Positions 5,518-24,303 of a DNA stretch of 64,000 bases are shown in pieces (positions within the stretch are counted from its first letter, which is position 1; each line of letters starts with the position of its first letter). Below the pieces are notes generated by a model that did not search any database, was not told the DNA's origin, and worked only from the letters and a program-made list of their open reading frames with translations. Both the position numbers and the translations under genes were made by a program. The stretch is from a virus (taxonomy: Duplodnaviria; Caudoviricetes), in the IMG/VR virus record IMGVR_UViG_3300038300_000071, positions 64,001-128,000 of that record; one strand, given 5' to 3'.

Positions 5518-5519
5518 TT

Positions 5520-6666: not shown

Positions 6667-6676
6667 AAGTATTCAT

Positions 6677-6748: not shown

Positions 6749-6766
6749 TATAATAAAAGGAATAAG

Positions 6767-6988: not shown

Positions 6989-7059
6989 GTAGAGCGTTGG
7001 AAGCGTTTGCAATTTGTGTAAGAGCTGTTAAAGTAAGATGAAATTAAATAAAAGAAAGG

Positions 7060-7839: not shown

Positions 7840-7905
7840 AAGTATTGTAAAATCAAAAGGAGTGTGAACTTATGAAGATCTAATAATCAACATAAGGAGT
7901 CCCAG

Positions 7906-8283
7906 ATGGGGAATACATATAAGAATAAATCACATACTGGATATTATAGGCGTTGCAGAGGACATAAGAAGGCAAGGATAAACAAGGCGAGGAGTATTCC
8001 TCCTGATGGTTGGGCTGAAGAAAGATGGCCTTGTAATATAAACAATATACCTTGGATTATCGTTGAGAGAATGTTTAATGATGGTTGGCCTGAGTATGAA
8101 GCTTTTGAAAGAGTAATGAGAAAGTGCAGGATCAGCAGGAGTAAGGCATCGGATATAACGAAGTTTTTCTACCATAGAATGCGATGGTATAGAAAAGGAA
8201 AGCCTGAACCTGATAATAAAACTCCAGAAGGATATTTAAAAGTTTGGAGAATAACAAGAGTTAAGGTAAATAAATACAAATAA
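7906..8283 (+). CDS. Hypothetical basic protein
   Basis: ORF with TAAGGAG RBS. Confidence 0.6.
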   Translation: MGNTYKNKSHTGYYRRCRGHKKARINKARSIPPDGWAEERWPCNINNIPWIIVERMFNDGWPEYEAFERVMRKCRISRSKASDITKFFYHRMRWYRKGKPEPDNKTPEGYLKVWRITRVKVNKYK

Positions 8284-8670
8284 ATAAAGGGTCATGCTGA
8301 AAAGTGTGGCCTTTTATATTTCAATAGGAATGGATATGGCTGTAGATTGCTTGGGAAGAGATATGAAGGTTGGAGATTGGGTTTCTTATACAAACACATG
8401 GCAGGCTGCTGATGTGAGAGTTGGTAAAATATCGATAATAAGAGATAAGCGTAAAGATGGAAAGCCAAGAGTTCATGCAGAGATCACAATATCTGGAATA
8501 GAGGGATATTGTACAAACGTAAATAGAAGTGGATATATATGCTTAATGGAGGCTCCCTTTGACAAGTTGAAAGGAGCGCTTGGAGTGGGAGATAAGTATA
8601 AGATGTAGTTGTATATTTTTTCAATATTTGGGAAGTATTGGAATGTATAACAACAGAAAGGGGTAGTAAG

Positions 8671-9342
8671 ATGTTAAAAGGAATAAGTTTAAATATACTT
8701 TTTGCCTTCTTCATAGCAATGTTCAGCTCTTCTGCTGGAATTATCACTCTTGACTCGGATGCAAGTCTTTCCAGTGTGGGAAATTACACTAAAACCAAAA
8801 TAAAGAAACCGAAGAGCGAGGTGTTTACTTATGGCTCTGGGATCGCTAGTGTATTCAAAACTGGAAAGCCGAAAAAGGGAGATGCGACACCAGAGAGCGA
8901 ATCAAGAGCTTATTTTGTTTTCGATTTATCCGAGGTGACTACCGAGATACTGAATGCTAGTATTGATTTCAGCGGCAGCGGTGATATTTTGAACTTTGAG
9001 TTTTTTCAAGTTAAATCAAATATAGAAGATTTGCGAGATGGGGTCGGAAGCGGTGCTCAGTTTGAGGAGTTTTATGATGACTTAGGGAAAGGCGTAAGAT
9101 ATGCAAATGGTAAAAGCACTAGCTTTAACTTCGATTCAGCATTGATTGATATGAATAATACCAGAAGTCTAGGAAGTTCTTTATTTGCCTTTGGTGTAAA
9201 GAGTAAAGATAAGAAATACTTCCTCTTTGAAAATGTCAAACTAACCTTGACGACTGCGGTTCCTGAGCCTAGAGAAATCCTTCTTCTCCTGACAGGTGTC
9301 ATTTCAGTGTTTCTCCTCCGCCGTAAGAAATCATTGGCTTAA
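8671..9342 (+). CDS. PEP-CTERM sorting-domain surface protein
   Basis: N-terminal signal peptide; C-terminal VPEP, transmembrane helix, RRKK. Confidence 0.88.
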   Translation: MLKGISLNILFAFFIAMFSSSAGIITLDSDASLSSVGNYTKTKIKKPKSEVFTYGSGIASVFKTGKPKKGDATPESESRAYFVFDLSEVTTEILNASIDFSGSGDILNFEFFQVKSNIEDLRDGVGSGAQFEEFYDDLGKGVRYANGKSTSFNFDSALIDMNNTRSLGSSLFAFGVKSKDKKYFLFENVKLTLTTAVPEPREILLLLTGVISVFLLRRKKSLA

Positions 9343-9425
9343 GTGTTATTGAGATATTTCCTTGGTATATTTTTTCAATATTTAGGGGTTGTTGACAGAT
9401 ATTAACTACAACAAGGGATGAAAAG

Positions 9426-9866
9426 ATGTTAAAAGGGATGGTAATGTTTATATTGGTTGCATTTATTGCTTCCAGCTTAACTTCATGCGGTATTATGCAG
9501 ATCACTCCGGGTCTTACTGGAAGCGGTGTTTATGAGCTAGGAGAAATAGGTGGTGTTAAGTATTACACTGTTCACTCTAGCCATATTGCAGGCCCAAATC
9601 AGACTGTAATGGTTTCACACGACACGCTTAAAGAAGGAGCAAGGCCTGTTAATATCGCTGTTAATGGCGGAGAAGGAATTGGCAAGTCTATTGTGGGAGC
9701 AGTTGGAAGTGTTGGATCTTCTTATGTGTTCGGAAAGTCTTTAAAGCCATCGAGTGAGAGCTCTTCTGTTGATGTGTCGGGAGGAAATGCTGCAGGAGGC
9801 GATGGAGGTAGTTCAACTTCCAGAGGTGGAAACGCAACTTCCAGAAATACCAACAATAATAGATAG
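9426..9866 (+). CDS. Lipoprotein
   Basis: Hydrophobic signal peptide with LTSC lipobox; Gly/Ser-rich tail. Confidence 0.7.
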   Translation: MLKGMVMFILVAFIASSLTSCGIMQITPGLTGSGVYELGEIGGVKYYTVHSSHIAGPNQTVMVSHDTLKEGARPVNIAVNGGEGIGKSIVGAVGSVGSSYVFGKSLKPSSESSSVDVSGGNAAGGDGGSSTSRGGNATSRNTNNNR

Positions 9867-9884
9867 AAATTAAATTAAAGAGTC

Positions 9885-9913
9885 AAAAGGCCCCACCTTG
9901 GTTGGGGCCTTTT
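9885..9913 (+). terminator. Intrinsic terminator
   Basis: AAAAGGCCCCA-loop-TGGGGCCTTTT. Confidence 0.8.
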
Positions 9914-10252
9914 GTTTGAACCTGTTTAATGGGTGATAATTGCACTACAAATACTTAGAGTGAAAACAGCGGATATTTAGACATATTGAGAAAATTATAG
10001 GATGAAAAACCTGTATGTAAGATGTTAGTTTGCAGTTAATTGTAATCATATCAGATTTTCCTAAAAATTTCCTATTATTATAAGTAGTATTCATACCGTC
10101 CAAGGCCTGCGCCATTTATTAGCTCCATATCTTTCGTAAAAAAATAAGAAATCTAGGACACTGAGATAAAATATATCAATAGACAAATTAAAATCCTCAA
10201 CAACGCAGTGCATGTTAGATTTAATAAGAGAAAATTCGTACAGGAGAGAAGA

Positions 10253-11068
10253 ATGCAGTTGATAAAAAAAACAAACGAACACGTTAGAAGATTAAAATCT
10301 CGACTTACTGGGATTGATTATCAGCTTGTCTTTGGTGGGGCTGTCAGAGATTCATTAATGGAAAGAAGTTACCAAGACGTAGATTTATTTTTCACAGACA
10401 GGACAAAATATATAAACACTGTGGGAAGATTGTGTGAAGAGGGATATTCGATAGTAGAGTTGTGCAGGAGAAAGTGGTCAAAGAATTTCATTTGTTTGTT
10501 CGGCAGGTATGAGAAAGAAAACCGTTTTAATAAATCGGGAAAAGAATTTGTAGATGTGATGTTGTTTGATTGCACAGAGGAAGAGTTAATTGCAGATTTC
10601 AAGTTGAGTTTTGATTTTGGTGTAAACGTGTGTTATATGAAAGATGGCGAAATTTATGCAAGTGACAGGTGCTTAAGTGAAATAGAGGATGGTGGTGTTT
10701 TAGAATTAGTGTCTGATAAAATTTCAATAGGGAACTGTATTGTAAGGGCTGAAAAGTTTCGAAGCAGAGGTTTTAAAGTCGGATCTAGTGTGATTGGATA
10801 TATTATAAAAGAAATAGAGCTGATGGAGGATTCTCCAGAGGATTACGAAAGTTCGAGATATATTAAGGTTCATGGTGGATATGGAACCTATTGTAATATA
10901 AAAGGCAAAAAGTTATATAGAGATTTTTTTAAACTAATTGACGAGGATACATTAATATTGGCAATGATGAGCAGTAGTGAAAAGATATTAGATTATTCTA
11001 AAAATAATCACAATAAGAAAATCAATAAGAAAGGTGTAGTTTCTAAAATAAGGAATTTGTTTGCATGA
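10253..11068 (+). CDS. Nucleotidyltransferase, CCA-adding/poly(A) polymerase head-like
   Basis: FGGAVRD...DVDLF and FDF motifs; ATG 10253 has an AGGAG RBS. Confidence 0.7.
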   Translation: MQLIKKTNEHVRRLKSRLTGIDYQLVFGGAVRDSLMERSYQDVDLFFTDRTKYINTVGRLCEEGYSIVELCRRKWSKNFICLFGRYEKENRFNKSGKEFVDVMLFDCTEEELIADFKLSFDFGVNVCYMKDGEIYASDRCLSEIEDGGVLELVSDKISIGNCIVRAEKFRSRGFKVGSSVIGYIIKEIELMEDSPEDYESSRYIKVHGGYGTYCNIKGKKLYRDFFKLIDEDTLILAMMSSSEKILDYSKNNHNKKINKKGVVSKIRNLFA

Positions 11069-11943
11069 AATACAACGCAGAGGTTATAAGTATAGAGGAG
11101 GTCAGTGAAAATCTAAGAATATTTAGAATAAAGCCTGATTTCCCTGTCAATAGTTATGAAGCTGGCCAATATACCACTTTGGGGTTAGATGGGAGCGAAG
11201 CTAGAGTACCAAGAGCGCAAAAGGAAGAGTTGGCCGAGGGAATGCTTAATAAAGTCCAAAAGAGGGCTTACAGCATATCTTCTCCGGTTTTCAAAGAGGA
11301 TCATGATTTGGTAGATCATAATGAATTGGATTATTTAGAGTTCTATATTTCATTAGTACCAGTTGGGCACAAGAGTTATCCTCCTTATTTGACTCCGAGA
11401 TTGTTTATGCTTAAGGAAGGCGATAGAGTAAACATGGGAAAGAAGATAACGGGTAATTATCTTTTAGGAGATGTAGATGATAAAGATACGATTATATTTA
11501 TATCTACTGGAACTGGATTGGCTCCTCATAACCCGATGTTGTCAAAGTTGCTAAGAGATGGGCATGAGGGGAAAATAGTTATAGTTGAGTGTAATCGTTA
11601 TAGCTGTGAGTTTGGCTATAGTACGCAGATAGAAGAAATTGTCGAATCTTATCCTAACGTGTTTCATGAAGTAATGATTACATCAGAGCGCGAAGATTAT
11701 TACATACAGAATTTATTTTCTGAGAATGTTTTAGAGGATAAGTATGATTTCAAGATTGAGGCGAAGAATACAAAAGTGTATCTTTGCGGAAGTCCTAGAA
11801 TGATTGGCGCTCCTAAGTTGGTAGATGGCAAAGAAGTATTTGACAACAAAGATGGAATGGTTTCACTCCTTCAGTCAAAGTATGGATTAAAGTCTAATTA
11901 TGAAAATGACGAAGGTCAGATTAATTTTGAGAAGTATTGGTAA
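11065..11943 (+). CDS. fpr: Ferredoxin-NADP+ reductase
   Basis: GQY, RAYSISS, STGTGLAP, YLCGSP and C-terminal EKYW motifs. Confidence 0.9.
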   Translation: MKYNAEVISIEEVSENLRIFRIKPDFPVNSYEAGQYTTLGLDGSEARVPRAQKEELAEGMLNKVQKRAYSISSPVFKEDHDLVDHNELDYLEFYISLVPVGHKSYPPYLTPRLFMLKEGDRVNMGKKITGNYLLGDVDDKDTIIFISTGTGLAPHNPMLSKLLRDGHEGKIVIVECNRYSCEFGYSTQIEEIVESYPNVFHEVMITSEREDYYIQNLFSENVLEDKYDFKIEAKNTKVYLCGSPRMIGAPKLVDGKEVFDNKDGMVSLLQSKYGLKSNYENDEGQINFEKYW

Positions 11944-12240
11944 GAGTGTAAATGGGAGTAGAAACATGGAGAGAGTAGAATTGAAGTTGAAAGATTGTGA
12001 TTTAGATGCAGTTGATCTAGATGGTGGTTGTTGGGGCTTTGGAAGTATGTATGGCAATGATTGGCATATATATCATGTAGATGATCATCTTAACGAAACC
12101 TCCTATGCCTTCCCTGAGTGGTTAAACGATTTGATTAATGCTAAATACAATCAAGGATCGGATGATAAAGTGAGCGAGATAAGAAAGGCTTTAAATCTGT
12201 GAGAAGGTGGAAGTTTTAAATTTAACATATTTTAAATAAA

Positions 12241-12282
12241 AAAACCCTTTTTAGTGAGTTATTAACTAAAGAGGGTTTTTTT
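12241..12282 (+). terminator. Intrinsic terminator
   Basis: AAAACCCTTTTTAGT...ACTAAAGAGGGTTTTTTT. Confidence 0.65.
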
Positions 12283-12687
12283 GTGGACAAAATGACAGTA
12301 TTAAATGGGATAGCGGCCATCAGCAGCATGAATGATAAATTCCAATATATAATAAATTTAGCGAAAGCGGCAGATGGTCTAGATGATTCAGAGAAGGTTC
12401 ACAAATATAAGATAAGAGGATGCAATTCCAAATTGTGGTTAGTTCCTAAGTTTGAGAATGGTCTTGTTGAGTTCAGAGTGGATGGTGAGGCGATGATACC
12501 TAAAGGAATAGGAATTATATTAGCCTTGGCTTATTCTGGGATGACGCCTGATGAAGTTATTGGAAAAGATCCTATCTTTTTAACTCAGTACGGGATAACT
12601 CATCACTTGACAGCCAGTCGTAGAAACGTCCTCAGTGGATTATACAAACAGATGAAATATTATGCTTCTGCTTATAAGAACATGTAA
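12283..12687 (+). CDS. sufE: SufE family Fe-S cluster sulfur acceptor
   Basis: IRGCNSKLWL, DGEAMIPKG and HLTASRRN motifs. Confidence 0.85.
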   Translation: MDKMTVLNGIAAISSMNDKFQYIINLAKAADGLDDSEKVHKYKIRGCNSKLWLVPKFENGLVEFRVDGEAMIPKGIGIILALAYSGMTPDEVIGKDPIFLTQYGITHHLTASRRNVLSGLYKQMKYYASAYKNM

Positions 12688-13090
12688 GGCCTCGGATTGA
12701 ATTGTCATTGTTTAGAGGATATATTAAGAGTGAATACAAGTGTGCTGAATTAGAATTCGTATGAATAAAACTTTTATTTTATTCCTTTTTATACGGGTGC
12801 TTACTTTTTTAGGATAAAATTAAATATATAATCTATCATTTTAAAAGGATCGGAGGCATACAATGAACTTGCATAGCGCAATTGGTGATCTATGTTCATC
12901 GTGCGAAGAAGTTGGGAGATTATCTCAAGCTATTGATCTTATGTACGCAAAGAACGAAATTGAAGACGTATATTCAAAAGAAGAAGTTTCAAAGAGGGAG
13001 TCGGAAGTCCATGTTAAGATTTGCAGATGTAATAATCTTAGGGTTGAGATTGAAGGTTTCATCAAGGCGGAATTAAAACGAGGCGGGTGA

Positions 13091-13465
13091 ATGCAATCTG
13101 GAAATGTAGTTAGATGTCTGAGGGCCGAGTCAGCAATTGATCCTTATGGCAGTTCTTATGAGAAGACAGGATTAAAGGATGGCGCATATTATTTGGTAAT
13201 ATTGAATTCTAATGAAAAGTTGAAGTTATTTGGAGTTAGAGGATATTTCAAGAAGGATTTATTTGAGCTCAAACATGATGTGGAGTATCATTCTCTTCCT
13301 TGGTTTAAGAAAGATTATTCTAAATGTGGGAATTGGGTTCTTGTTGATGGGATGAATTGGAGGTTTAAATATTCTTCCAACACTTACGGAGGCCCAGATT
13401 ATCCTAAGATAAAGAACGCATTGTTTGTAGACCCTCATTCAGTAGAGAGAGTGTGCGAAAGTTAA
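13091..13465 (+). CDS. Hypothetical protein
   Basis: ORF in a tightly packed + strand run (12863-14311). Confidence 0.55.
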   Translation: MQSGNVVRCLRAESAIDPYGSSYEKTGLKDGAYYLVILNSNEKLKLFGVRGYFKKDLFELKHDVEYHSLPWFKKDYSKCGNWVLVDGMNWRFKYSSNTYGGPDYPKIKNALFVDPHSVERVCES

Positions 13466-14337
13466 GAATTTGAGTTATTGTTCGTATAGTTGTATGTGAG
13501 TATAATTGGAATTGAAGGAATTGATGATGGCGCTTGGTAATGGATTAGACGTGTCTTGCTTTAACTACATTGGAGGGAATTTAACTTCAATGCCTTCGGA
13601 GGTGGAAGTTGCCTACACGAACAAGATAAAAAATTTAAATAAGATGGTATCGGTTTTATCAGAGGAAGTGGATTTGGATAAATTCGATAAAAGTTTCAAA
13701 GGCAATATAGAGGAAGTTTTAGAAGAACGCTACAGAGATAAGATAGAAGGCCATGAGTCTTTAATCAATTTATTGAAGGGTGAGATTTTAGAACATGAGT
13801 CTCTTATTGATAAAATTAAAAGTTTAGGTGGTGTGGCTGGTGGTGAGTTGCTTGAATCTTACAGATTATGCAAGGGCGAATTGGCAGTTGCGCAAAACAT
13901 AAAAGAGAAGGATTTATGATGTCAATATTTAAAGATATAAAGCTATTGGATGCTCTTGAAAGCGGGTGTATAACTTTACAAATGAAAAATTGTTACTCCA
14001 AAGAGGTTGATTTGGTGTGGAATGGAATAGCGAAGCACATATTTACAGATTTTTATTTCCTAGAGGTTGAGATTGCGGACAGCAAAGATCCGGCAGAAGA
14101 AGTTCAGTATTGGAAGGTATTAAATAAAATCTTCGAAGAAGTAATTGAGATAAATACCAGAAAAGATTTAGTAGCAAACATAATTTATGCAGTTTCTTCA
14201 GGTTATGTTCCGGTTGGAGTTCCAAAGTCATTCCTTGATAACATTGTAAAGTCATACAAAAACCACACAAAAGGCATCGATTTATTTAAAAGAAGAGCTA
14301 AGGATAAATAAAAGATTATATTTTTTCAACAAACAGT

Positions 14338-14366
14338 TTGCAAATTAAGAGTTGTTAAAGTATATT
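14338..14366 (+). promoter_or_regulatory. sigma70-type promoter of tRNA operon 2
   Basis: TTGCAA-17 nt-TATATT. Confidence 0.7.
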
Positions 14367-14410
14367 GTTAAATAACGAAAGATTAAAATTTATTTAAGAG
14401 AAGTAGAAAA

Positions 14411-14497
14411 ATGAAAAACTTTACAGAAAACACAACACATCTAGGCCTTGTACTTCATGGTACGTGGTTTATGGGTTGTATTGGGTTTTCTGAATAA
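14411..14497 (+). CDS. Leader peptide of tRNA operon 2 (MKNFTENTTHLGLVLHGTWFMGCIGFSE)
   Basis: 28-codon ORF between promoter and terminator; 14 of codons 8-22 are Thr/His/Leu/Gly/Trp/Phe/Met, the tRNAs encoded downstream. Confidence 0.8.
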   Translation: MKNFTENTTHLGLVLHGTWFMGCIGFSE

Positions 14498-14523
14498 GTA
14501 TATTTTTACATATATAGTTTTAG

Positions 14524-14557
14524 AAAGCCCTTTGAGAAATCCTCAAAGGGCTTTTTT
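14524..14557 (+). terminator. Attenuator terminator upstream of tRNA operon 2
   Basis: AAAGCCCTTTGAG-loop-CTCAAAGGGCTTTTTT. Confidence 0.9.
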
Positions 14558-14563
14558 GTTTTT

Positions 14564-14636
14564 AGGGAAGTAGCATAATTGGTAGTGCAGTGGATTCCAA
14601 ATCCAAAGGTTGTGAGTTCGAGTCTCTCCTTCCCTG
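14564..14636 (+). tRNA. tRNA-Trp(CCA)
   Basis: AGGGAAG/CTTCCCT acceptor; TGGA-TTCCAAA-TCCA anticodon arm. Confidence 0.9.
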
Positions 14637-14661
14637 CTTAAAGATAAAGGAAAGAAAAAAA

Positions 14662-14937
14662 ATGATTACGATTAAAGATTTTTGCGAGAAGCATGAAATA
14701 GAGAGAAGAGTAGAGAAGTATGGTGATTATAGCGATTTGTATGTGGATATTTGTAAAAGGTATAAATCGGAAGTAGAGGTTTGGTTTGAGATGGGTGCTG
14801 ATGGAAATGATTGCAAGCATATGTTAAGATATTATAAGGAAGGAGATTTGAAGGAATACTTTAAAGAGTTTTATGGTTTTACAGAGGAGATTCCAGAAGG
14901 GATGTTATCTGTAAGTGATAGTGAAGAAGTGGAGTAA
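14662..14937 (+). CDS. Hypothetical protein
   Basis: Start moved to ATG 14662, downstream of tRNA-Trp. Confidence 0.6.
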   Translation: MITIKDFCEKHEIERRVEKYGDYSDLYVDICKRYKSEVEVWFEMGADGNDCKHMLRYYKEGDLKEYFKEFYGFTEEIPEGMLSVSDSEEVE

Positions 14938-14943
14938 AGATAA

Positions 14944-15017
14944 GGCGTGTTAGCTCAGTTCGGTAGAGCGGTTGATTGAAGCCCAACAGGTCACTGGTTC
15001 AAATCCAGTACGCGCCA
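14944..15017 (+). tRNA. tRNA-Phe(GAA)
   Basis: Cloverleaf; TTGAAGC anticodon loop. Confidence 0.9.
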
Positions 15018-15019
15018 CT

Positions 15020-15092
15020 TCCAGAGTAGCCTAATTGGTAAGGCGACAGATTGTGACTCTGTTAATTGCGGGTTCGAGTCCCGTCTCTGGAC
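15020..15092 (+). tRNA. tRNA-His(GTG)
   Basis: ACAGA-TTGTGAC-TCTGT arm; discriminator C; the -1 position is T, so G-1 is not encoded. Confidence 0.9.
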
Positions 15093-15094
15093 TT

Positions 15095-15180
15095 TGGATG
15101 ATGCACGACTGTCTTAAGGCAGTTAGGATAAGGCGCTCCGATATAAAGGAGAGATTCGTTGGTGAAAATCCAGCCATCTA
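15095..15180 (+). ncRNA. Degenerate tRNA-like RNA
   Basis: TGGATG/CATCTA terminal stem; GTTGG-TGAAAAT-CCAGC T-arm-like hairpin; two internal hairpins. Confidence 0.35.
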
Positions 15181-15205
15181 TTTTTTGAAGAAGAAAGAAA
15201 TTTAT

Positions 15206-15278
15206 GCATGTGTAGCTCAGTTGGTAGAGCAATGGATTTGTAACCCATAGGTCAGGAGTTCGAGCCTCCTCTCATGCT
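15206..15278 (+). tRNA. tRNA-Thr(TGT)
   Basis: Cloverleaf; TTTGTAA anticodon loop; one T-T mismatch in the acceptor. Confidence 0.85.
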
Positions 15279-15283
15279 TACAT

Positions 15284-15356
15284 AAGTATGTAGCTCAATT
15301 GGTAGAGCATCTGAATCATAATCAGAATGTTGCAGGTTCGAGTCCTGTCATGCTTA
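15284..15356 (+). tRNA. tRNA-Met(CAT)
   Basis: TCTGA-ATCATAA-TCAGA anticodon arm. Confidence 0.85.
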
Positions 15357-15360
15357 CTAT

Positions 15361-15434
15361 GTCAGTGTAGCTCAATTGGCTAGAGCATCTGGTTGCCAAT
15401 CAGAAGGTTGCAGGTTCGAGTCCTGTCACTGATA
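15361..15434 (+). tRNA. tRNA-Gly(GCC)
   Basis: TCTGG-TTGCCAA-TCAGA anticodon arm. Confidence 0.9.
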
Positions 15435-15483
15435 TTGAAGTTTAGGAAATGTTAAATTAAAATTATTTACATGGGACTTACAG

Positions 15484-15975
15484 ATGCGATCAAAGAAGGG
15501 GTTGACGGCGAAGGATATAACTGCTGGCATATTTAAGCATTTTCATAAGAAGAGCAAGTGGATAATTGAAAGTATCTACTTGCTTTTTGACAGTGAGAGT
15601 GACGTTGTAACGATGTCAAAAGCAGGATATATTACAGAGTATGAGGTAAAAGTTGCGCTGAGTGACTTTAAAAGAGACATGGCAAAGAGGTATAAGATGG
15701 GAAGAGTGTCTAAGAATAAGCATTCTGCGTTATCTAGCGGTAAGACGGGAATAAAGCACTTTTACTTCTGTGGCCCAAAGGATATGATACCTTTAGAGCT
15801 TATACCGAGTCATGCAGGCTTAATGGAATTCTGGAAGCAAGGAGGAAGGGTGAGGTATAGGATTGTAAAGAAAGCTCCTACTCTTGTGAACGCGACTAAG
15901 GCGTCTTTTAAAATGGAGAAGAAAATTATAACTTCTATGAAGTGGAAGTACATGAACAAAGTGATGAAAGAGTAA
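15484..15975 (+). CDS. PD-(D/E)xK nuclease-like protein (MmcB-like)
   Basis: ESDVV...EYEVKVALSDFKRD...FYFCGP...AGL pattern. Confidence 0.65.
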   Translation: MRSKKGLTAKDITAGIFKHFHKKSKWIIESIYLLFDSESDVVTMSKAGYITEYEVKVALSDFKRDMAKRYKMGRVSKNKHSALSSGKTGIKHFYFCGPKDMIPLELIPSHAGLMEFWKQGGRVRYRIVKKAPTLVNATKASFKMEKKIITSMKWKYMNKVMKE

Positions 15976-16074
15976 AAGATGTTGAAGACTAAGAAATAGA
16001 GTGTTAAATTAATATAGTGGAGTTGAAAATTATAGGACTGCCATTATAGTAATTTAGAAATAAGGAAGTTGGCT

Positions 16075-16266
16075 ATGGATTACAATGTAATAGTTTTTAA
16101 AGAGGATGGAGATTTTATTGCAACGTGCAAGGAGATGCCTAGCATTTCGGGAATAGGAGACACAAAGCTGAAGGCAATAGAAGAGTTTCACATTGCAATT
16201 TCTCTTGCAAAAGAGATTATGGATGAGCAGGGAACTCCAATGCCGGAAAGAATTGATGGAGTATAA
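16075..16266 (+). CDS. HicB-like antitoxin domain protein
   Basis: FIATCKEMPSISGIGDT...AIEE...EQGTPMP pattern. Confidence 0.75.
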   Translation: MDYNVIVFKEDGDFIATCKEMPSISGIGDTKLKAIEEFHIAISLAKEIMDEQGTPMPERIDGV

Positions 16267-16722
16267 GTGGTTTTTTTGTTTTCCTTGTGGTGGGCCGTCC
16301 ATGATTTGCATGGATTGCGATGCTTCAATTTGTACAGGAGGTTGTAGGCATGCTACGGAGTTATTTGAAGTTGAGCCTAAGTTTTGGGATGAAGACGACA
16401 CAAAGGACGTGGGAGATATTACACCTAAGAGAGCGAAAGAGTTGATAGGCGAATGGAATGACTATGGAAGGAAGATGAGGAGTGGTTGTCTTGGAATACT
16501 TGAGAAAAAAGAAATATGAGGTGTAGATTGACATGTTGTTCAGATCTCTTGGAAAGGAAGCACTTTGGTTGGGTTCTTAGTCGATCTTGGGATGTTTATC
16601 GCAAGAGGTGTCTTATAGATTTCGAAACTTTAGATGGTGAAAGTTTTACAGTTCCGATTGAAAATCTTTGTGGAGATTCTCCGAGTGGATTTTTGATTGT
16701 GGGAAATAAAGAAGAAATACAC

Positions 16723-16795
16723 GCCAGTGTAGCTCAGTTGGTAGAGCAGGTCACTTGTAATGATCAGGTCAACGGTTCGAATCCGTTCACTGGCT
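16723..16795 (+). tRNA. tRNA-Thr(TGT), second copy
   Basis: GCCAGTG/CACTGGC acceptor; GGTCA-CTTGTAA-TGATC arm. Confidence 0.93.
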
Positions 16796-16818
16796 TTAGG
16801 AAAGAAGGAATAGATTAA

Positions 16819-17046
16819 GTGGTTATAGATGTAGAGATTGATAATTGTTGTGGTGGAGGTCATTGTGGGCCAGTACCCGGATATACTTATGAATGTCCAG
16901 TATGTGAGAAGAGCACGATGTGTAGGACTAGGAATGGACGTGCTCTTGATGTTGATGAAAGTTTAACTTGCTCATTATGCAAGGAAGAAATAACAGTTGT
17001 AGAAGTGTTGAGTGATGGAACATTCGATTTTGATTTTGAATTGTAA
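16819..17046 (+). CDS. Small zinc-finger protein
   Basis: CPVC and CSLC pairs. Confidence 0.55.
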   Translation: MVIDVEIDNCCGGGHCGPVPGYTYECPVCEKSTMCRTRNGRALDVDESLTCSLCKEEITVVEVLSDGTFDFDFEL

Positions 17047-17059
17047 GTAAGTTTATTAT

Positions 17060-17169
17060 GCCGGAGTAGCTTAATTGGTTAGAGCATAAGTGAAGCGCAT
17101 CATCGGAGACTAGTTAATCCTTTGTTGCTAGTATCTTAAAGGTTGCAGGTTCAAGTCCTGCCTCCGGCA
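17060..17169 (+). ncRNA. tRNA-like RNA with 44-nt segment replacing the anticodon loop
   Basis: Perfect GCCGGAG/CTCCGGC acceptor; canonical D- and T-arms; TAAG/CTTA stem enclosing 44 nt. Confidence 0.75.
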
Positions 17170-17191
17170 CTTTTTAGGTAATAAGTTTTAT

Positions 17192-17294
17192 GCGGGAGCC
17201 TGTTGGTTAGGGCTTAGTGAAGAGTATTTTGATGCACCTGGTTAAATCATAATGCAAGTAGCTTTGTACGGGGGTTCGAATCCCTCCTTCTGCT
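17192..17294 (+). ncRNA. tRNA-like RNA with extended central arm
   Basis: GCGGGAG/CTTCTGC acceptor; GGGGG-TTCGAAT-CCCTC T-arm; GTGAAGA...AAGTAGC motif. Confidence 0.6.
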
Positions 17295-17350
17295 TTGGTT
17301 TTAAAGTATAGGCGAATTAAATAAGATATTTTGGGAAAGGGTGAAACTGA

Positions 17351-17986
17351 ATGATTAGTCATAAACATAAGTTTATTTTTTCGCATGTTCCCAAGGTTGC
17401 TGGAACATCGATAGAGATTTCTTTAAGGCCATATGATGATTCTGGCTTTAAGTGGGGATTAAGGAATGATGATTTGGGAAATGCGATTGCAAATCATAAG
17501 GATTATTTTGTATTTGGATTTGTTAGAAATCCTTATGACAGGTTGGTATCGGCGTGGAAGATGTCGAAGGTAAATGGAAAGCATGATATGCCATTTAGGG
17601 ATTATGTGACGTGTGTTGGCAAATTCCTATCTCATGATTATGAAACGTTGATAAAGTTGTACAGAAGTAATAAGTGTTGGAAGAATGGATATCCTTTGAC
17701 GATGAAGGATGCGGGATTTTTAGACCCTGTTCATGATAAGTATCATACTGTATATCAGTGGAACTTTACTTATGGTTGTAAGTTTGTAGGAAGGTATGAG
17801 CGTTTGGATGATGATTTTAAATTGGTATGTGAAGTATTAAAGTTGAATGTTGATGATCTTCGGAGGGGAAATAAGTCTGGGGATGGCAGCAATTACAAAG
17901 AGCATTATGATAAAAATTTGCAATCTCAGGTGTATGAAATGTACAAGCAAGATTTCTTAATGTTTGGTTATCAATACAAGCTGTAG
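17351..17986 (+). CDS. Sulfotransferase family protein
   Basis: FSHVPKVAGTSI, FVRNPYDRLVS, VGRYE motifs. Confidence 0.88.
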   Translation: MISHKHKFIFSHVPKVAGTSIEISLRPYDDSGFKWGLRNDDLGNAIANHKDYFVFGFVRNPYDRLVSAWKMSKVNGKHDMPFRDYVTCVGKFLSHDYETLIKLYRSNKCWKNGYPLTMKDAGFLDPVHDKYHTVYQWNFTYGCKFVGRYERLDDDFKLVCEVLKLNVDDLRRGNKSGDGSNYKEHYDKNLQSQVYEMYKQDFLMFGYQYKL

Positions 17987-18045
17987 TTTGTGCTTAGATA
18001 ATTTTTTTATAATTCTCCAGAAATTATAAAAGGAGATTTAAAAAA

Positions 18046-18210
18046 ATGAAATACGAATGTTTTGATTGCAGTTCAATATTTGACATAGATGCATCCAATG
18101 ATGGAAGTTGTCCAAGTTGTGGAAGTTCTAATGCGGCGCGGTATAATAATGACTATGCTAGATATGATGATGAAGATGAAGAGAGTTATAAAGATGAGTA
18201 TGATGACTAA
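18046..18210 (+). CDS. Small zinc-ribbon protein (54 aa)
   Basis: YECFDC...CPSCGS; AGGAG RBS; read by hand. Confidence 0.65.
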   Translation: MKYECFDCSSIFDIDASNDGSCPSCGSSNAARYNNDYARYDDEDEESYKDEYDD

Positions 18211-18216
18211 GTTTGA

Positions 18217-18291
18217 ACCTCTGTGGGCAAATTGGCAAAGTCGCTCCGTTTAGGCCGGAGAGTTTTCTGGGTTCGAGTCCCAGCAGAGGTA
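18217..18291 (+). tRNA. tRNA-Leu(TAG), short variable loop
   Basis: ACCTCTG/CAGAGGT acceptor; CTCCG-TTTAGGC-CGGAG arm. Confidence 0.88.
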
Positions 18292-18565
18292 TTAAGGAAA
18301 CAATAAGAGGGATGGTGCTGTGAGTGATTGGGGCGATAGAGATGATGACGACTGGTTTAAGGATCGTCAAAGGCAAGGATTAAAGGAGGAGTTAAGCAGG
18401 CCGCAAAAGCTTTGCAAATGGCTGTTGGAAAAAACATTTGTCATGGCTTTTATTGCATTTGTGTTATCGTTTGCAGTGGGAAGTTTAATACCGCTGTGTG
18501 TATTTTTTGCAGTAGAGTCGGCTGCTTTGTTTTATTTGTTAGTATTTAATTAATGTAAAGGCGGT

Positions 18566-19108
18566 ATGGTTATGATCAGAAGGATAAATTTCCTTGGTGG
18601 AGCTTGCACTGGAAAGTCAACCATGGCCGCTGGTATATTTTCAAAGTTAAGAAAGAATGGATTCAGCGCAGAACTTACAGGAGAGTTTGTAAAGGATTGG
18701 GCTTATACTGGCAGAGTGGCTACTAAATTTGACAGCCTGACAACTTTTTCAAATCAGCTTTACAGAGAAGAGCTTCCACTGAAGAGTGGGATTGACTTAG
18801 TGGTCAATGACAGTCCTATATTGTTGAGTATAATTTATGCAAAAAATGATAGCGTGGGAATAGAAGAGGCAATGCTTCAAATTCTCAATAAGTTTGAGAG
18901 TTATTATCCTTCATTGAATATATTTCTAGAGAGGGATGGTATTGATTATGAGAATGAGGGAAGGTATTCCGGTTTAGACGTCGCTGAAAGAATAGATGGT
19001 GAAATATTAAATGCTCTAAGTTCAAATGGCATCGAGTATAAGCTGATGAAAAGCTTAGATGATAGTGCGGTATATGAATATATAATGAATGAATTAAATA
19101 AAAATTAA
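18566..19108 (+). CDS. P-loop ATPase/kinase (NadR/AAA_28-like)
   Basis: GGACTGKST Walker A; DSPILLS; YENEGR. Confidence 0.8.
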   Translation: MVMIRRINFLGGACTGKSTMAAGIFSKLRKNGFSAELTGEFVKDWAYTGRVATKFDSLTTFSNQLYREELPLKSGIDLVVNDSPILLSIIYAKNDSVGIEEAMLQILNKFESYYPSLNIFLERDGIDYENEGRYSGLDVAERIDGEILNALSSNGIEYKLMKSLDDSAVYEYIMNELNKN

Positions 19109-19156
19109 ATAATCTAATGTTAGTGTTAATTGTTAGTTATTTAATGGGATTGGAAA

Positions 19157-19789
19157 ATGGAATCTTCAAATGTAGCACATCGTAAGACTTTAGTTCTTAA
19201 TCGTAATTTTAGCCCAATAAGTATAGTAGATAGTTTGGAAGCCATATGTAAGGTTTACACGGGAGCGGCAAAAGTTCTAGGCTCTGACTGGCAGAAGTAC
19301 GACTTTACCGATTGGGTAGACAATTGGGAAGACATTGCAGAGATGACTGGATGCGAAGTGGATTCAGGAAGATTAATAAATGGAACTTTCATTTCTCCTG
19401 AAATAATAATACTGGAAGTATACAAGGGTCATCACAGGCCTCATTCTAATTTCTCAAGAAGAAATATATTCATAAGGGATGAGAATACGTGTCAATACTG
19501 CAGTTACCATTCAAACGATAGAAAGAAATTCAATTTAGATCATGTTGTTGCAAAGTCGAAAGGTGGATTGGCGACATGGGAAAATATAGTTTTGTCATGT
19601 TTTCCTTGCAACAGAAAGAAAGCAAGTATGACTTTGAAGGAGGCTAATATGAAATTGTTAAGAGAGCCTAAGAAGCCTTTGTTTAATCAGCCAGAGTTTG
19701 GATTTGGTTCGAATAAGAAAGTTTCTACTCCCAAGAGTTGGGATGACTTTGTAGGAAGTCTATATTGGAATACAACCTTGAGGGACTGA
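19157..19789 (+). CDS. HNH endonuclease
   Basis: SRRNIFIRD..CQYC, DHVV..SKGG..WENIVLSCFPCN. Confidence 0.92.
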   Translation: MESSNVAHRKTLVLNRNFSPISIVDSLEAICKVYTGAAKVLGSDWQKYDFTDWVDNWEDIAEMTGCEVDSGRLINGTFISPEIIILEVYKGHHRPHSNFSRRNIFIRDENTCQYCSYHSNDRKKFNLDHVVAKSKGGLATWENIVLSCFPCNRKKASMTLKEANMKLLREPKKPLFNQPEFGFGSNKKVSTPKSWDDFVGSLYWNTTLRD

Positions 19790-19928
19790 TTCAAGGATTG
19801 GGATGCGTTGAGTTTTAATCATAATGAAAGGTGTTTTTGATAATGAATGTGAATTAGTGAAGGTTTAGTTTCTCCCGATGTTTTAGATTTATTAGATTAT
19901 ATAATGAACGAAGTTTAACAGATAGAGA

Positions 19929-20186
19929 TTGCCAGTAATGCATCATATTGAAATAGAGTTGTTACCGTGTCCGTTTTGTAGAAGTAAAGATATTGAGCTT
20001 GTGAGTATTGATTGGAGGAAGGGGGTTAGGTGCAACTCTTGCCATGCCCAAGGCCCAAAAGTTCAAACGCCTCCAGATGTCGCATTTAGCAATGAAGCGG
20101 CTGTAAGATGGAATGAATATGGAGTAAATATAGTGGGAGTTAAGAAAAAAAATAATAAAAACATTGAAAAAAAGCAAATTGCATAG
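19929..20186 (+). CDS. Lar (restriction alleviation)-like zinc-finger protein
   Basis: LLPCPFC...CNSCHAQGP...AAVRWN. Confidence 0.7.
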   Translation: MPVMHHIEIELLPCPFCRSKDIELVSIDWRKGVRCNSCHAQGPKVQTPPDVAFSNEAAVRWNEYGVNIVGVKKKNNKNIEKKQIA

Positions 20187-20267
20187 AAATTTTTAACTTC
20201 TTTGTTGTAGTATATATGGATGTCCGTGGAAGCGGATAAAAATATAAATAAACAAGGAAGAATAAAA

Positions 20268-20648
20268 ATGCAAAAAACAGCAAATGCGGAAAAGTTAGCG
20301 GAAGCAGGAAGAAAGTCTTGGATAACTAGAAGAGAGAATGAACTAAAGCGTAAGCGCAGTGAAGCTGGCAAGAAGGCGGCTCTTACTCGTAAAGCCAATC
20401 GTGATGCTCTTCTTAAAGAAGAAGCTAAAGTTGCTCGTGCAACTAAGCGAAAGTCTACATCTAAGGCTAAGAGTTCTACACCTAAAGCTAAGTCAACTAC
20501 CGCTAAGACAAAAACTTCAAAAGCTAAGAAGGCTGTGGCAAAGAAGGTTGAAGTTTCACCTTTGACTAAGAATCAGAAGTTGAAACTTCAGCGTAGCGAA
20601 GCTGCTAAGAAATCATGGGCAACAAGAAGAAAGAACGCAAAGAAGTAA
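20268..20648 (+). CDS. Lys/Ala-rich histone-like DNA-binding protein
   Basis: Three (S/A)EAx(K/R)Kx(W/A)xTR(R/K) repeats and a KAK-rich linker. Confidence 0.6.
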   Translation: MQKTANAEKLAEAGRKSWITRRENELKRKRSEAGKKAALTRKANRDALLKEEAKVARATKRKSTSKAKSSTPKAKSTTAKTKTSKAKKAVAKKVEVSPLTKNQKLKLQRSEAAKKSWATRRKNAKK

Positions 20649-20979
20649 AAAGTACTCTAGGGGGAAATACTCCTAGAAGTGCTGCACTGGGGGGAAGAAC
20701 GACATTTACTGAATACAAATGTCCGATTTGCTCAGAAACAGATGCGTACTACTACATTGTAGATGCCGCAGGGTCGAGAGGTAACTCTTGGCTTTGCGGC
20801 ATTTGTGGTTCTAGGAATTCGCCTTATTTGTCCGATTTGCCATTCGGATGCTTAGCAACAGGCATTAAGAAAGGTGTCTGAGATTATTAGAATTAAATAC
20901 AGGATCATTAATATGCGTAGAAATCTCTATGGTATATGATTATAATTGATTCTTAATCTTAAAAGTTAGGTAAATTAAT

Positions 20980-21735
20980 ATGCGGAAGAAGAAGAGAGCG
21001 GAAGAATCGTCTTTAAAGAATACTGGTGGAAAAAATAATCCTGTTGGAGAAGACTGGAAAAAGCCTTGGTGTACTTTTAAAGGCAATGATAACGGACTTA
21101 AACAGAAGCAATATTGCGATTTAATAGGTAGCAGCGAAATAACTATATGTGCTGGCCCAGCTGGAACGGGGAAATCATATATCTCAATATACAAGGCGTT
21201 GGATTTGCTATGGAAGAAGGGTAATGGATATGATAAGATAACTTTATTTAAGCCAGTAGTTGAAGCTGATGAGAAGATAGGATTCCTACCTGGCAGCGTC
21301 GAAGATAAGATTTCCGTATATTCAAGTTCTTCTTTGAGCATAATTGACAAGATAATCGGGAAAGAGAAGAGATTGGAATTGGTATCAATGGGAATTATTG
21401 AATGTAGAGCTTTGGCCTACATAAGAGGAGATAGTTTTGATCATACCATTCTAATTCTAGAAGAGGGGCAGAACTCTAGCCCAAGGCAGATGAAAACGTT
21501 ATTGACGAGAATTGGTGAAAAGACTAAATATATTATCAATGGAGATATGGATCAGTCTGACAGATTCAAAGATTACACAAAAACAGGCCTTTATGATGTG
21601 GTTAATAGGCTAAAGGGAATTGAAGGTGTTGGAACGTTTGAGTTTGAAATAGGCGACATCGTTAGGAATCCGATTATCAGTAAAATTCTTGAAAGGTATG
21701 AAGATGACTATGATGATGGAAGAATGTTTGAATAA
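20980..21735 (+). CDS. phoH: PhoH-like ATPase
   Basis: GPAGTGKS, IGFLPG, AYIRG, EEGQN, LTRIG, GDMDQSD motifs. Confidence 0.93.
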   Translation: MRKKKRAEESSLKNTGGKNNPVGEDWKKPWCTFKGNDNGLKQKQYCDLIGSSEITICAGPAGTGKSYISIYKALDLLWKKGNGYDKITLFKPVVEADEKIGFLPGSVEDKISVYSSSSLSIIDKIIGKEKRLELVSMGIIECRALAYIRGDSFDHTILILEEGQNSSPRQMKTLLTRIGEKTKYIINGDMDQSDRFKDYTKTGLYDVVNRLKGIEGVGTFEFEIGDIVRNPIISKILERYEDDYDDGRMFE

Positions 21736-21759
21736 TATTTAAAAAAAAGAAAAAGCAAG

Positions 21760-21788
21760 TGGACAATATTAGTTTCATGCGCTATAAT
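21760..21788 (+). promoter_or_regulatory. sigma70-type promoter
   Basis: TGGACA-17 nt-TATAAT. Confidence 0.7.
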
Positions 21789-21859
21789 AAAGACATAAGC
21801 TTCAATATATAAAGAATCAGGCAAAATAAAAAAGTGATTAATTGAGAGGCTTATGTTTT

Positions 21860-21946
21860 GGATATATAGCTCAGCGGCCAGAGCAGAAGGATTCTAACCC
21901 TTTGGTAGTCGAAAGGCAGGCGCAGGTTCGATTCCTGTTATATCCT
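21860..21946 (+). tRNA. Atypical tRNA with long variable arm; possible amber suppressor (CTA), anticodon register ambiguous
   Basis: GGATATA/TATATCC acceptor; normal D- and T-arms; GAAGG-ATTCTAAC-CCTTT arm; GAAA-capped variable arm. Confidence 0.6.
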
Positions 21947-22164
21947 TTTCTTATATTCATTGCGGCGACGCTAGTACATGCGGACTAAAGCGAACGGTGG
22001 AGCACCTCTAAAGTGTTCTTGACAAGCAAGGAAATGTACTGCTTGTCAAATATAAGATCGAGGCTTGATTTTCTTGTTGCGGAAAATCTGATCGCAAGCG
22101 GTAGAAGTCCGAAGTAACATTATTTTTTAACGTAAGTAAACAAAAGCAAAGTAAGGAAAAGAAA

Positions 22165-22269
22165 ATGAAAAAAGTATTCTTGTAGATCAAAAGAGGCCCT
22201 CCGGCATTAATTCGGTGTTTAAAAGTTTTTAGAGTTGAATTAATTAAATATATCGGAGAAGAAAAATGA
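22165..22269 (+). promoter_or_regulatory. Amber-interrupted uORF MKKVFL*IKRGPP...EEK (putative translational attenuator)
   Basis: AAGGA RBS; TAG at 22183-22185; RGPP follows after two codons; final TGA overlaps the ATG at 22266. Confidence 0.6.
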
Positions 22270-22634
22270 TTACTATTGAAAAAAATGAAACAGAAGTAAG
22301 TGAAATAGAAGTAAACAAGATTAGAGCAGTTAAGGCTAACTTGAAGACGAAGATTAAAGACCAAGCTGTTCTTCAGAAGAGAGCCAAGTCTAATAATAAA
22401 GAAGTACAGCGTGAAGTAACTAAGTGTGGATGGAATTCAGATCTTTACAAGAGAAGAATGATCAATTTGTCCTACGACATTACGCTAACCCACATTCTTT
22501 ATAATCGCCTAAGAAATAGACCTCCTCATACAGGATCTGTCGAAAGCGATAATTCATACATGTCTACGTATGGAGATTACTCAAATATAAAAAATGATCT
22601 AGAGTCTAGATTCTCAATAAGCTTGGGAGTTTAA
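22266..22634 (+). CDS. Hypothetical protein upstream of the Pth2-like gene
   Basis: GGAG RBS; one nucleotide separates it from the next gene. Confidence 0.7.
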   Translation: MITIEKNETEVSEIEVNKIRAVKANLKTKIKDQAVLQKRAKSNNKEVQREVTKCGWNSDLYKRRMINLSYDITLTHILYNRLRNRPPHTGSVESDNSYMSTYGDYSNIKNDLESRFSISLGV

Positions 22635-22635
22635 G

Positions 22636-22962
22636 ATGGAATCTAGAATGTATATCTTAGTCAATAAGTCGTTGACCAAATCTCAAAGAATACCTCAATC
22701 ATCTCATGCAGTGGCAGAATTTATGCATACTCATGGGTCTGACAAAAAGGTTAAGACTTGGGTGGAAGATCACAGAACGATGGTTGTCCTTGAATCTGAC
22801 TTTAGCAATATGGATGACATATTAAATACAGTCGAAAAGGATGGATATAAGGCCAGATCTTTTAGAGAGCCTGATTTGAACGATGTGGTGACTGCTATTG
22901 CTTTTGAACCTATGACAAGGCAGGAAGGCGGAAAGTATTTTTCAAGATTAAAATTGGCGTAA
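22636..22962 (+). CDS. Peptidyl-tRNA hydrolase 2-like protein
   Basis: MYILVNKSL..SQ..PQSSHA, MVVL, FREPDL...TAIA pattern. Confidence 0.75.
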   Translation: MESRMYILVNKSLTKSQRIPQSSHAVAEFMHTHGSDKKVKTWVEDHRTMVVLESDFSNMDDILNTVEKDGYKARSFREPDLNDVVTAIAFEPMTRQEGGKYFSRLKLA

Positions 22963-24303
22963 TGAAGCATTGGAGAGGCTTTACGGCCTCTCTTTTCTTT
23001 TTAAAGGAGTAAAGATGAAAAAAGAAAATTATGATAAGTTGGTAGAAGAATTTGTCGATCTTGAAGATTTGGTTTATGGTCATATTGAAAGGTATAAGGA
23101 GTTCTATGGCGATGGGTGTTGCCATGTCGGTATGGATTCTTTTGATGAATGTACTGTAGAACTTAGCGGAGTTGAGACATGGAGGTATGGAGGTCGAGAG
23201 GAGCATTTCTTAACTTTAGAAGTTGATGATCTGTTTAGCGAAGAGAGAATGAATGTTAAGCTTAAAAAGAGAAGTGATGAGATTATAAAAGAGAAGAATA
23301 AGAAGAAGAGAGCGGAGCAAAGAAAAAAGAGGGAAAAGATTAAAGCTGCTCGTAAGTTGCTAAAGGATAATAACGAATTATGAATGTAAGAGAGCTGATA
23401 AACGAGTTGAAGGGATGCGATCCTGATGCAATAATTTGCACTGGGGGAAATGAGTCTATAAATTATATAGAGTGTTTACCTTCTTATTATGATGGAAGAC
23501 TTATGCATGTAATGCAGGATGAATGTGGAAACCCTGTTAAGATATCGATGAGGAGTGGTGGATCAAAGGTCAAAATGCATTCGTATGACATTGAGGATGT
23601 TATTTTTGATAATCCAAGAATAGAAGTTGAAACTGGGGATGGCTTTAACTCATCTTTAAGTACTTATGCTGAGTGGAGACAGGAAGGTTTAGATTATGAA
23701 AGAAATGCAAGAAAAAAGTTTTATCATTACGGTTATTTAGAAAAGTATGACGACATGTTGTTTATATGGGATGTGGTAGAATTATGAGGAGAAGAGATAT
23801 GAAGAAGGAATTTATAAAAGTAAAGACGGATGGCTTTGAGAATCTAACAGAGGGTAAGATTTATTCAGTTTTGTCTTGCGATGTGTGGGATATGGCCCTA
23901 GTTTATCTTTTTTTTAATGATGTGGGGAAGTTGGTTCAGCATCATGACTGGGAGGATTATTGGGAAGATAACTTTGAGTTAATTAACGAGGAGATGACAG
24001 ATAGGGAGGTGATGATATTTAACAGTGGAATATCTCACGGACTTTGTATAGCAAAGACAGATGTTGACGAAGAGTATGGAATGAAATGCTTTGAGAGGGG
24101 GAAGAAGAAGCGCAAGAGTCTGAAGGAGAAAAAAGGATATCTTTGGTTGGACGATGGGGTTGAGAAGATAAGGAGTAATTTAAATAGTCTTTACAGTGAG
24201 AAGACAGATCATTTCTATGACAGTGGTGATAAAGATGGTATAGTTTGATTTAGAAGTTGAAAAATAAATAATGACGTGTATTGTAATGTAAGAAAAAATA
24301 TAA

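Follow-up and report, generated by a model that had tools for sequence, protein, structure and literature searches.

Why do large phages carry so many tRNA genes, and how are these genes deployed? The usual explanations of phage tRNAs are compensation for codon usage and replacement of host tRNAs that have been degraded or cleaved, and both are silent on regulation. The question is raised by a locus in the stretch of 64,000 nucleotides analysed here (the window), which comprises bases 64001-128000 of the single 202,452-bp virus record IMGVR_UViG_3300038300_000071. At 14338-14562 a block of tRNA genes is directly preceded by a promoter, a short open reading frame (ORF) and an intrinsic terminator, and the codons of the ORF correspond to the amino acids of the tRNAs behind it. 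This element, called module 4 below, is in our judgement likely to be a ribosome-mediated (leader-peptide) transcription attenuator that gates the phage tRNA block. Positions are those of the window unless they are marked as genome positions.

The phage encodes a large terminase, a portal protein and a GroEL homologue. In the window the plus strand carries every long ORF, the GC content is approximately 37% and the GC skew is strong; AAGGAG-type ribosome-binding sites precede many genes of the phage. A search of the phage collection for relatives by DNA returned tRNA-to-tRNA matches only, and no relatives were found when IMG/VR was searched with the neighbouring proteins. Two sister clades could be reached via a neighbouring protein of 390 residues (71-74% protein identity) and were followed along their contigs by protein look-ups, namely clade B, an NCBI metagenome contig, and clade C, which consists of an ENA contig and JGI contigs. 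A metagenome scan yielded nothing beyond these two clades. Together with the genome described here they are referred to as the three clades.

Anatomy of the leader region and its tRNA block

All parts of module 4 and the tRNA genes behind it are located on the plus strand. The promoter (14338-14366), of the sigma-70 type, consists of a -35 hexamer TTGCAA, a 17-nt spacer and a -10 hexamer TATATT; the positions of the hexamers are kept in clades B and C, and the spacer is variable. A purine-rich, weak Shine-Dalgarno-like tract (14396-14403), also kept in both clades, lies 8 nt 5' of the ATG of the leader ORF (14411-14497), which comprises 28 codons followed by TAA and whose frame and stop are kept in clades B and C as well. 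Codons 4-22 are presumed to be the sensing codons. The leader is predicted to fold into a long hairpin (regions 1:2, 14424-14492), in which the outer stem is formed by 14424-14431 with 14485-14492. The last four codons of the ORF (region 2, 14483-14494), invariant in the three clades, are the candidate 5' strand of an antiterminator; by sequence and duplex energy its candidate 3' strand is region 3 (14519-14530), which overlaps the 5' arm of the terminator. A small conserved A/U hairpin (14498-14517), predicted from the consensus fold of the three clades, lies in the spacer between the stop codon and the terminator. The intrinsic terminator (14522-14562) combines a stem-loop of 15 pairs (14522-14556, approximately -21.7 kcal/mol) with a T-tract reaching to 14562, and it is conserved in clades B and C.

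The tRNA-Trp(CCA) gene (14564-14637) starts only 2 nt past the T-tract and therefore has no room for a promoter of its own, so that it would be made by terminator read-through only. It is followed by the genes for tRNA-Phe(GAA), His(GTG), Thr(TGT), Met(CAT) and Gly(GCC) (14944-15435), a second tRNA-Thr(TGT) (16723-16795) and tRNA-Leu(TAG) (18217-18291), all identified by tRNA prediction and Rfam. Protein-coding ORFs are found between the tRNA genes, including small phage ORFs and a sulfotransferase-family gene. A preliminary description of this locus, made from the letters alone, had listed the promoter, the 28-codon ORF, the terminator and the order of the tRNAs, all of which are present where it had placed them. 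The 12-bp pairing that it proposed between the end of the ORF and the terminator arm exists both in the sequence and in the predicted fold, with 10 Watson-Crick and 2 G-U pairs.

Codon content of the leader

Eighteen of the 27 codons of the module 4 leader (initiator excluded) are cognate to the amino acids of the downstream tRNAs, compared to a background of 29% in the proteins of this phage (binomial P = 5.9e-5). At the level of codons the match is 17/27 against a background of 20% (P = 1.9e-6). Within codons 8-22, 14 of 15 are cognate, and the leader includes each of the seven amino acids, as had been noticed before; the codon choices reported at that time (ACA/ACG for Thr, CTA/CTT for Leu, and GGC, GGT, GGT and GGG for Gly) were found again. 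The cognate match is confined to the open frame. As a further background we used the 737 ATG-initiated ORFs of 20-35 codons on both strands of the genome. Only four of these small ORFs, including the leader itself, reach its fraction of cognate codons, which ranks it fourth for its own amino-acid set, and all seven amino-acid types occur together in 1.6% of them. The codon match is more than chance.

Four modules in one genome

ARAGORN predicts 29 tRNA genes genome-wide, which are organised in four blocks plus one lone suppressor-type tRNA(CTA); Rfam adds a few further atypical tRNAs. The preliminary description, which knew two leaders, had predicted additional leader/tRNA pairs (for Lys, Asn, Glu, Ser, Cys, Pro and Ala) in other parts of the genome. 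Two were indeed found outside the window, at genome 52442-52660 (module 1) and genome 62278-62506 (module 2). Module 1 precedes tRNAs for Pro, Ala, Ile, Glu, Pro, Gly(TCC) and Lys (block 1), and module 2 those for Ser, Cys, Ser, Asn, Asn, Leu(TAA) and Leu(CAA) (block 2). Each of the two has a promoter with a 17-nt spacer, a 25-codon ORF and a terminator of approximately -21 kcal/mol, and the first tRNA follows within approximately 14 nt of the T-tract. Module 3 (4141-4345, plus strand) is built from a promoter (4141-4169), a 26-codon leader (4207-4287) and a terminator (4310-4345) and precedes Val, Arg, Arg, CAT-anticodon, Asp and Gln tRNAs (4396-6748). Canonical terminators with hairpin and T-tract are thus carried by modules 1-4. 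The promoters belong to one family, TTGMMA-17-GTATAYT; four of the nine matches to this relaxed pattern on the plus strand of the genome are the promoters of the four tRNA modules.

When every leader is compared with every tRNA set, the own sets give 16/24, 14/24, 16/25 and 18/27 cognate codons for modules 1-4, whereas the off-diagonal fields hold between 0 and 9. Among the 737 small ORFs the leaders of modules 1-4 take the empirical ranks 1, 6, 2 and 4, and the product of these four ranks is approximately 1.6e-10. The leader at 4207 is devoid of Phe, Thr, His and Trp codons and the leader at 14411 of Arg, Gln and Asp codons, in agreement with the earlier reading. The modular, operon-specific match claimed for two leaders is real, because the two predicted modules were found and each leader fits its own tRNA block.

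Judged from their codons, the four circuits would divide 19 amino acids among them, Tyr being included only via a tRNA that is carried by the relatives. No canonical tRNA-Tyr was found in block 2 of this genome. Two low-scoring, degenerate or atypical tRNA-like stretches exist there (genome 62829-62903 and 63246-63320; L001 12829-12903 and 13246-13320), and the one at genome 63246-63320 fails to align with the tRNA-Tyr of the relatives. The relatives carry a tRNA-Tyr(GTA) at the end of block 2, which accounts for the four Tyr codons of the block 2 leader.

By its sequence, the CAT-anticodon tRNA of block 3 (5309-5383) could be either Ile2 or Met. The block 3 leader has two ATA codons, as would suit an AUA-reading Ile2; the block 1 leader uses ATT only, and block 1 contains Ile(GAT).

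The suppressor-type tRNA(CTA) (21860-21946) is 87 nt long with a long variable arm. It has its own promoter-like site (21760-21788) and neither a leader nor a terminator, which we count in favour of sensing, because there is no sense codon that could be sensed for this tRNA. A recoding of TAG, as the tRNA might suggest, was rejected: TAG ends 40 of the 208 long ORFs, and little coding length is gained if it is translated. A similarly long tRNA of 86 nt is present in clade B (L010 18136-18221; anticodon TCT according to ARAGORN), whose homology to tRNA(CTA) is only a candidate one. The module 1 leader ends with TAG directly followed by TGA (TAG at genome 52589-52591, L001 2589-2591), and clade B has TGG and then TGA at this place. 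The TAG could be read through, for one codon, by the CTA-anticodon tRNA of the phage.

Conservation in the sister clades

Every leader recovered from clades B and C has an intact start, frame and stop; the clade C copy of module 1 was not recovered and is hence outside this comparison. The module 4 leader differs between the clades at 5-8 of its 87 nucleotides (approximately 91-94% identity), compared to 78-80% identity in the surrounding DNA, and its differences from clade C comprise six synonymous and two amino-acid changes. In the leaders, the variable sites are distributed 8/5/17 over codon positions 1/2/3 (P = 0.007). The sole indel comprises one whole codon and stays in frame. Replacements in the sensing stretches remain within the cognate amino acids (N to S, an added N, S to L, Y to C, L to F and V/I swaps). 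On sequence grounds, such variation is characteristic of a translated sequence in which the identity of the codons matters. Invariant across the three clades in module 4 are the outer stem of the leader hairpin, both antiterminator strands and the terminator.

The region upstream of the module 3 leader differs among the clades. Clades B and C have a conserved insert of 140-165 nt between promoter and leader (L002 11206-11345; L004 4983-5135), which is missing from this genome. Three hairpins are predicted in the insert, and it matches no Rfam family.

Recurrence in distant phages

The closest terminase in the phage collection (TerL, 34% identity) belongs to LR745208.1, a GC-rich, uncultured phage of 485 kb. 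Its 36 tRNAs lie in approximately nine blocks that are sorted by amino acid, and in front of six of these blocks (Arg/Gly, Thr, Pro/Ala, Tyr/Cys/His, Leu and Glu/Asp) there is a consensus promoter with a short ORF rich in the amino acids of the block. The individual P values of the leaders range from 4.6e-6 to 0.04 (Fisher combined P = 4e-14), and among the 720 permutations of leaders over blocks the true one alone scores best. For three or four of the blocks no clear closed ORF with a match was found.

The next terminase relative (28% identity) is Tunturi_5, a cultured Tunturiibacter phage whose host in culture is Tunturiibacter psychrotolerans X4BP1. Three of its tRNA blocks are each preceded by a short ORF and a terminator with hairpin and T-tract; the ORFs are enriched for their own sets (P = 9e-5, 0.017 and 7e-4), and there is no off-diagonal enrichment. 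The three leaders are found at approximately 231156-231254, 239171-239335 and 251573-251722 of the Tunturi_5 record. One of these leader ORFs is annotated as a hypothetical protein, the other two are unannotated. The paper on Tunturi_5 lists 43 tRNAs, and both "leader" and "attenuat" are absent from its text (PMC11924767).

LR745208.1 and Tunturi_5 thus share the design of the phage described here, but group the amino acids differently. As a negative control, the Streptomyces phage Jay2Jay was included. None of the 19 annotated ORFs directly upstream of its tRNAs is enriched (all P above 0.1). Hence, matched leaders are not universal among tRNA-rich phages.

RNA folding and proposed mechanism

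The leader region is far more stable than its shuffled versions (z-score -4.85). For the duplex of 14483-14494 with 14519-14530 an energy of -13.3 kcal/mol was calculated, which is equalled by 4% of random genomic segments (P = 0.04). The corresponding P values are 0.002 for module 1, where the duplex is a perfect 12-bp one, and 0.05 for module 3. Such modelled energies can be called convincing for module 1 and borderline for modules 3 and 4. In a crude simulation, in which the footprint of the ribosome was masked and the transcript folded up to the terminator loop, the antiterminator of module 4 forms with the ribosomal A-site at codons 1-21, and does not form at codon 22 or from codon 24 to the stop. 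This range agrees with the location of the cognate codons. The preliminary description had additionally proposed an anti-antiterminator. Its pairing (14424-14431 with 14485-14492) is found in the sequence and in the predicted fold, whereas its role did not come out clearly in the folding simulations.

From these features we infer the following course of events. The host RNA polymerase would initiate at the promoter, and a ribosome would translate the 28-codon leader. Given an ample supply of aminoacyl-tRNAs for Thr, His, Leu(CUN), Gly(GGY), Trp, Phe and Met, this ribosome would arrive at the last codons or the stop and cover 14483-14494, the terminator (14522-14556) would form, and transcription would stop 2 nt before tRNA-Trp. 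If any of the sensing codons is decoded slowly, the ribosome would stall within codons 4-21 and open the leader hairpin, which would free 14483-14494 to pair with 14519-14530. The 5' arm of the terminator would then be sequestered, and read-through into the genes for tRNA-Trp, Phe, His, Thr, Met and Gly, possibly further, would result. The circuit would represent a self-limiting supply controller with negative feedback, because its products are the very tRNAs that read the sensing codons and would relieve the stall.

Contrary evidence and alternative explanations

Several observations weigh against this mechanism. The Shine-Dalgarno-like tract of module 4 is weak compared to the AAGGAG sites of the phage. 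At the isoacceptor level, the match of Gly and Leu codons involves too few codons for significance. Module 2 has no significant antiterminator as judged by duplex energy against random segments, and the footprint simulation is uninformative for modules 2 and 3. In the fold of the truncated transcript, the antiterminator of module 4 also forms without a ribosome, so that in the model a transcript that is not translated would not clearly terminate. Moreover, synonymous changes in clade C break three central pairs of the module 4 hairpin, and compensatory base-pair changes were found in none of the 49 pairs in the three clades; the hairpins thus receive no support from covariation, because the relatives are too close.

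The arrangement of promoters and tRNA genes has to be mentioned here as well. An internal promoter-like site, TTGAAA-16-TATAGT (16023-16050, plus strand), has an invariant -35 and a -10 kept in the three clades, and from it the second tRNA-Thr (16723) and tRNA-Leu (18217) may be transcribed on their own. Since this site is conserved in all three clades, a single transcript of 3.7 kb reaching tRNA-Leu at 18217 is doubtful on sequence evidence. In module 3, a promoter-like site lies between the terminator and the first tRNA, and this site is better preserved in the relatives than in this genome. Furthermore, clade C has kept the leaders although it lacks the Arg tRNAs of block 3 and, in block 4, the Trp, Phe, His and first Thr tRNAs. 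The latter loss is marked by a chimeric tRNA (L012 12720-12792) with a Trp-like 5' acceptor strand and a Met(CAT)-like remainder, which records a deletion in which Trp, Phe, His and Thr were removed and the 5' end of the Trp gene became joined to the Met(CAT) gene. As the acceptor stem of this fusion is mismatched, the loss is probably recent.

With these points in mind, it can be asked whether the leader is translated and senses decoding, but acts through an output other than classical attenuation, i.e. through Rho access, through RNase processing or stability of the tRNA precursor, or with the opposite polarity, in which fast translation leads to read-through. The codon match proves only a link between the translation of these codons and the tRNA block, an antiterminator has moderate support in modules 3 and 4 and none in module 2, and the hairpins 3' of the LR745208.1 leaders lack T-tracts, so that non-intrinsic termination may act in that phage. 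However, the canonical terminators of modules 1-4 and of the three Tunturi_5 modules as well as the perfect antiterminator of module 1 speak for classical attenuation, and the stop codon lies 23-30 nt 5' of the terminator stem, too distant for a terminating ribosome to melt the stem; we therefore regard a different output as unlikely.

It appears even less probable that the element is a small RNA gene, or a terminator that merely ends the upstream operon, with an untranslated ORF, tRNAs originating from constitutive leak-through and the codon match as a by-product. A leader fold with such a low z-score and a terminal terminator is found in many small RNAs, and no terminator exists between the upstream gene, which ends at 14311, and module 4. 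But this explanation can account neither for the frame- and block-specific match, which occurs in four modules here, six in LR745208.1 and three in Tunturi_5, nor for the third-position bias, the in-frame indel and the cognate-to-cognate replacements, and it leaves the synonymous changes that break the hairpin unexplained, too. Finally, these short ORFs were singled out by eye, and the LR745208.1 blocks without a clear matched leader could be taken as a sign that the composition arose by chance and was picked after the fact. Given the product of the four empirical ranks, the replication in other genomes and a negative control that behaved as expected, we attach hardly any weight to this possibility. 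Attenuation by a translating ribosome hence remains the explanation that we prefer for 14338-14562.

Relation to known systems

The order of promoter, short ORF rich in regulatory codons and intrinsic terminator is the same as in the enterobacterial leaders ilvL of ilvGMEDA (Ile/Leu/Val), thrL (Thr/Ile), trpL, hisL, leuL and pheL. There, too, the upstream antiterminator strand is covered by a ribosome that has reached the end of the ORF, and ilvL and thrL sense more than one amino acid. In contrast to these leaders, the targets in the phage are tRNA genes and not biosynthetic enzymes, so that the product would act directly on the sensing step. The phage leaders would sense five to seven amino acids through mostly scattered codons instead of long runs, and the system is phage-borne, in four copies with complementary codon sets. 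Another parallel is the pheST attenuator of E. coli with its leader pheM, which likewise controls a gene of the translation apparatus through codons cognate to the same amino acid. Its target is an aminoacyl-tRNA synthetase for one amino acid, whereas in the phage modules the control would be exerted on tRNAs, and for many amino acids. T-box riboswitches also couple the supply of a specific tRNA to terminator read-through via an antiterminator switch; they differ, however, in binding uncharged tRNA directly and independently of translation (by a specifier codon and the conserved T-box sequence), in their size of more than 200 nt and in responding to one tRNA. The T-box family (RF00230) gave no match up to E = 1 in 3500-23000, and none at the gathering score in the related loci. 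The known Rfam leader families (Trp, His, Thr and Leu leaders and the trpB motif) were rejected, since none reaches its gathering threshold: the best leader-type match is the trpB motif with 34.9 bits (threshold 59, E = 0.13), and on a relative the His and Thr leaders reach approximately 20-22 bits against thresholds of 49-55. Jay2Jay resembles the phage described here in that a single region of its large genome holds many tRNA genes with small ORFs among them, but the ORFs 5' of its tRNAs are not enriched in cognate amino acids.

To our knowledge, all described leader-peptide attenuators regulate genes of amino-acid biosynthesis or aminoacylation, and the genes downstream of module 4 belong to neither class. 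A full-text literature search found no published leader-peptide control of tRNA genes, which does not prove its absence from the literature. More generally, we hold it to be fairly probable that in a lineage of huge phages, represented by this genome, its two sister clades, LR745208.1 and Tunturi_5, the tRNA genes are operated as feedback-controlled supply units, each block being turned on when its own codons are decoded slowly in a dedicated leader peptide. Leader-peptide attenuation would then be seen for the first time in tRNA genes, and the units would at the same time be a built-in sensor of host tRNA depletion, caused for example by host shut-off or anticodon nucleases.

If this is true, such a phage gauges the speed of decoding codon by codon and supplies tRNAs on demand, and the expression of phage tRNAs should respond to the depletion of host tRNAs. 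There would be a regulatory reason for sorting tRNA genes into blocks, and leader sequences would predict which tRNAs are co-regulated and also the identity of ambiguous CAT-anticodon tRNAs. Leader-peptide attenuation would be extended to a new class of targets, in which the product feeds back directly on the sensor, and the leaders, as compact sensors of translation with several inputs, might be useful in synthetic biology. Since Tunturi_5 and its host are both in culture, the idea is directly testable.

Further features of the tRNA blocks

Block 4 contains an additional tRNA that is interrupted close to the anticodon loop by an insert of 37 nt (17060-17169, plus strand; Rfam 51.8 bits), which ARAGORN reads as Thr AGT if introns are allowed. 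It is followed by a tRNA-like stretch (17193-17290) with a good T-arm and a G-U-rich acceptor stem, to which no tool assigns an identity. The clade B homologue of the region 17060-17290 lies at L010 about 11650-12138. Clade C carries an insertion further along block 4, namely a type I restriction-modification system (HsdM, HsdS).

Several protein-coding genes are interleaved with the tRNAs of the window. They encode an Acb1-like or 2H-phosphoesterase-family protein (anti-CBASS family; 6115-6666), a DNA methylase (7060-7839), a sulfotransferase-family protein (17351-17986), an AAA_28 ATPase (18566-19108) and an HNH endonuclease (19157-19789). Between tRNA blocks 1 and 2, six ORFs of 313-343 residues each are arranged in tandem (genome 55982-62076; L001 5982-12076).

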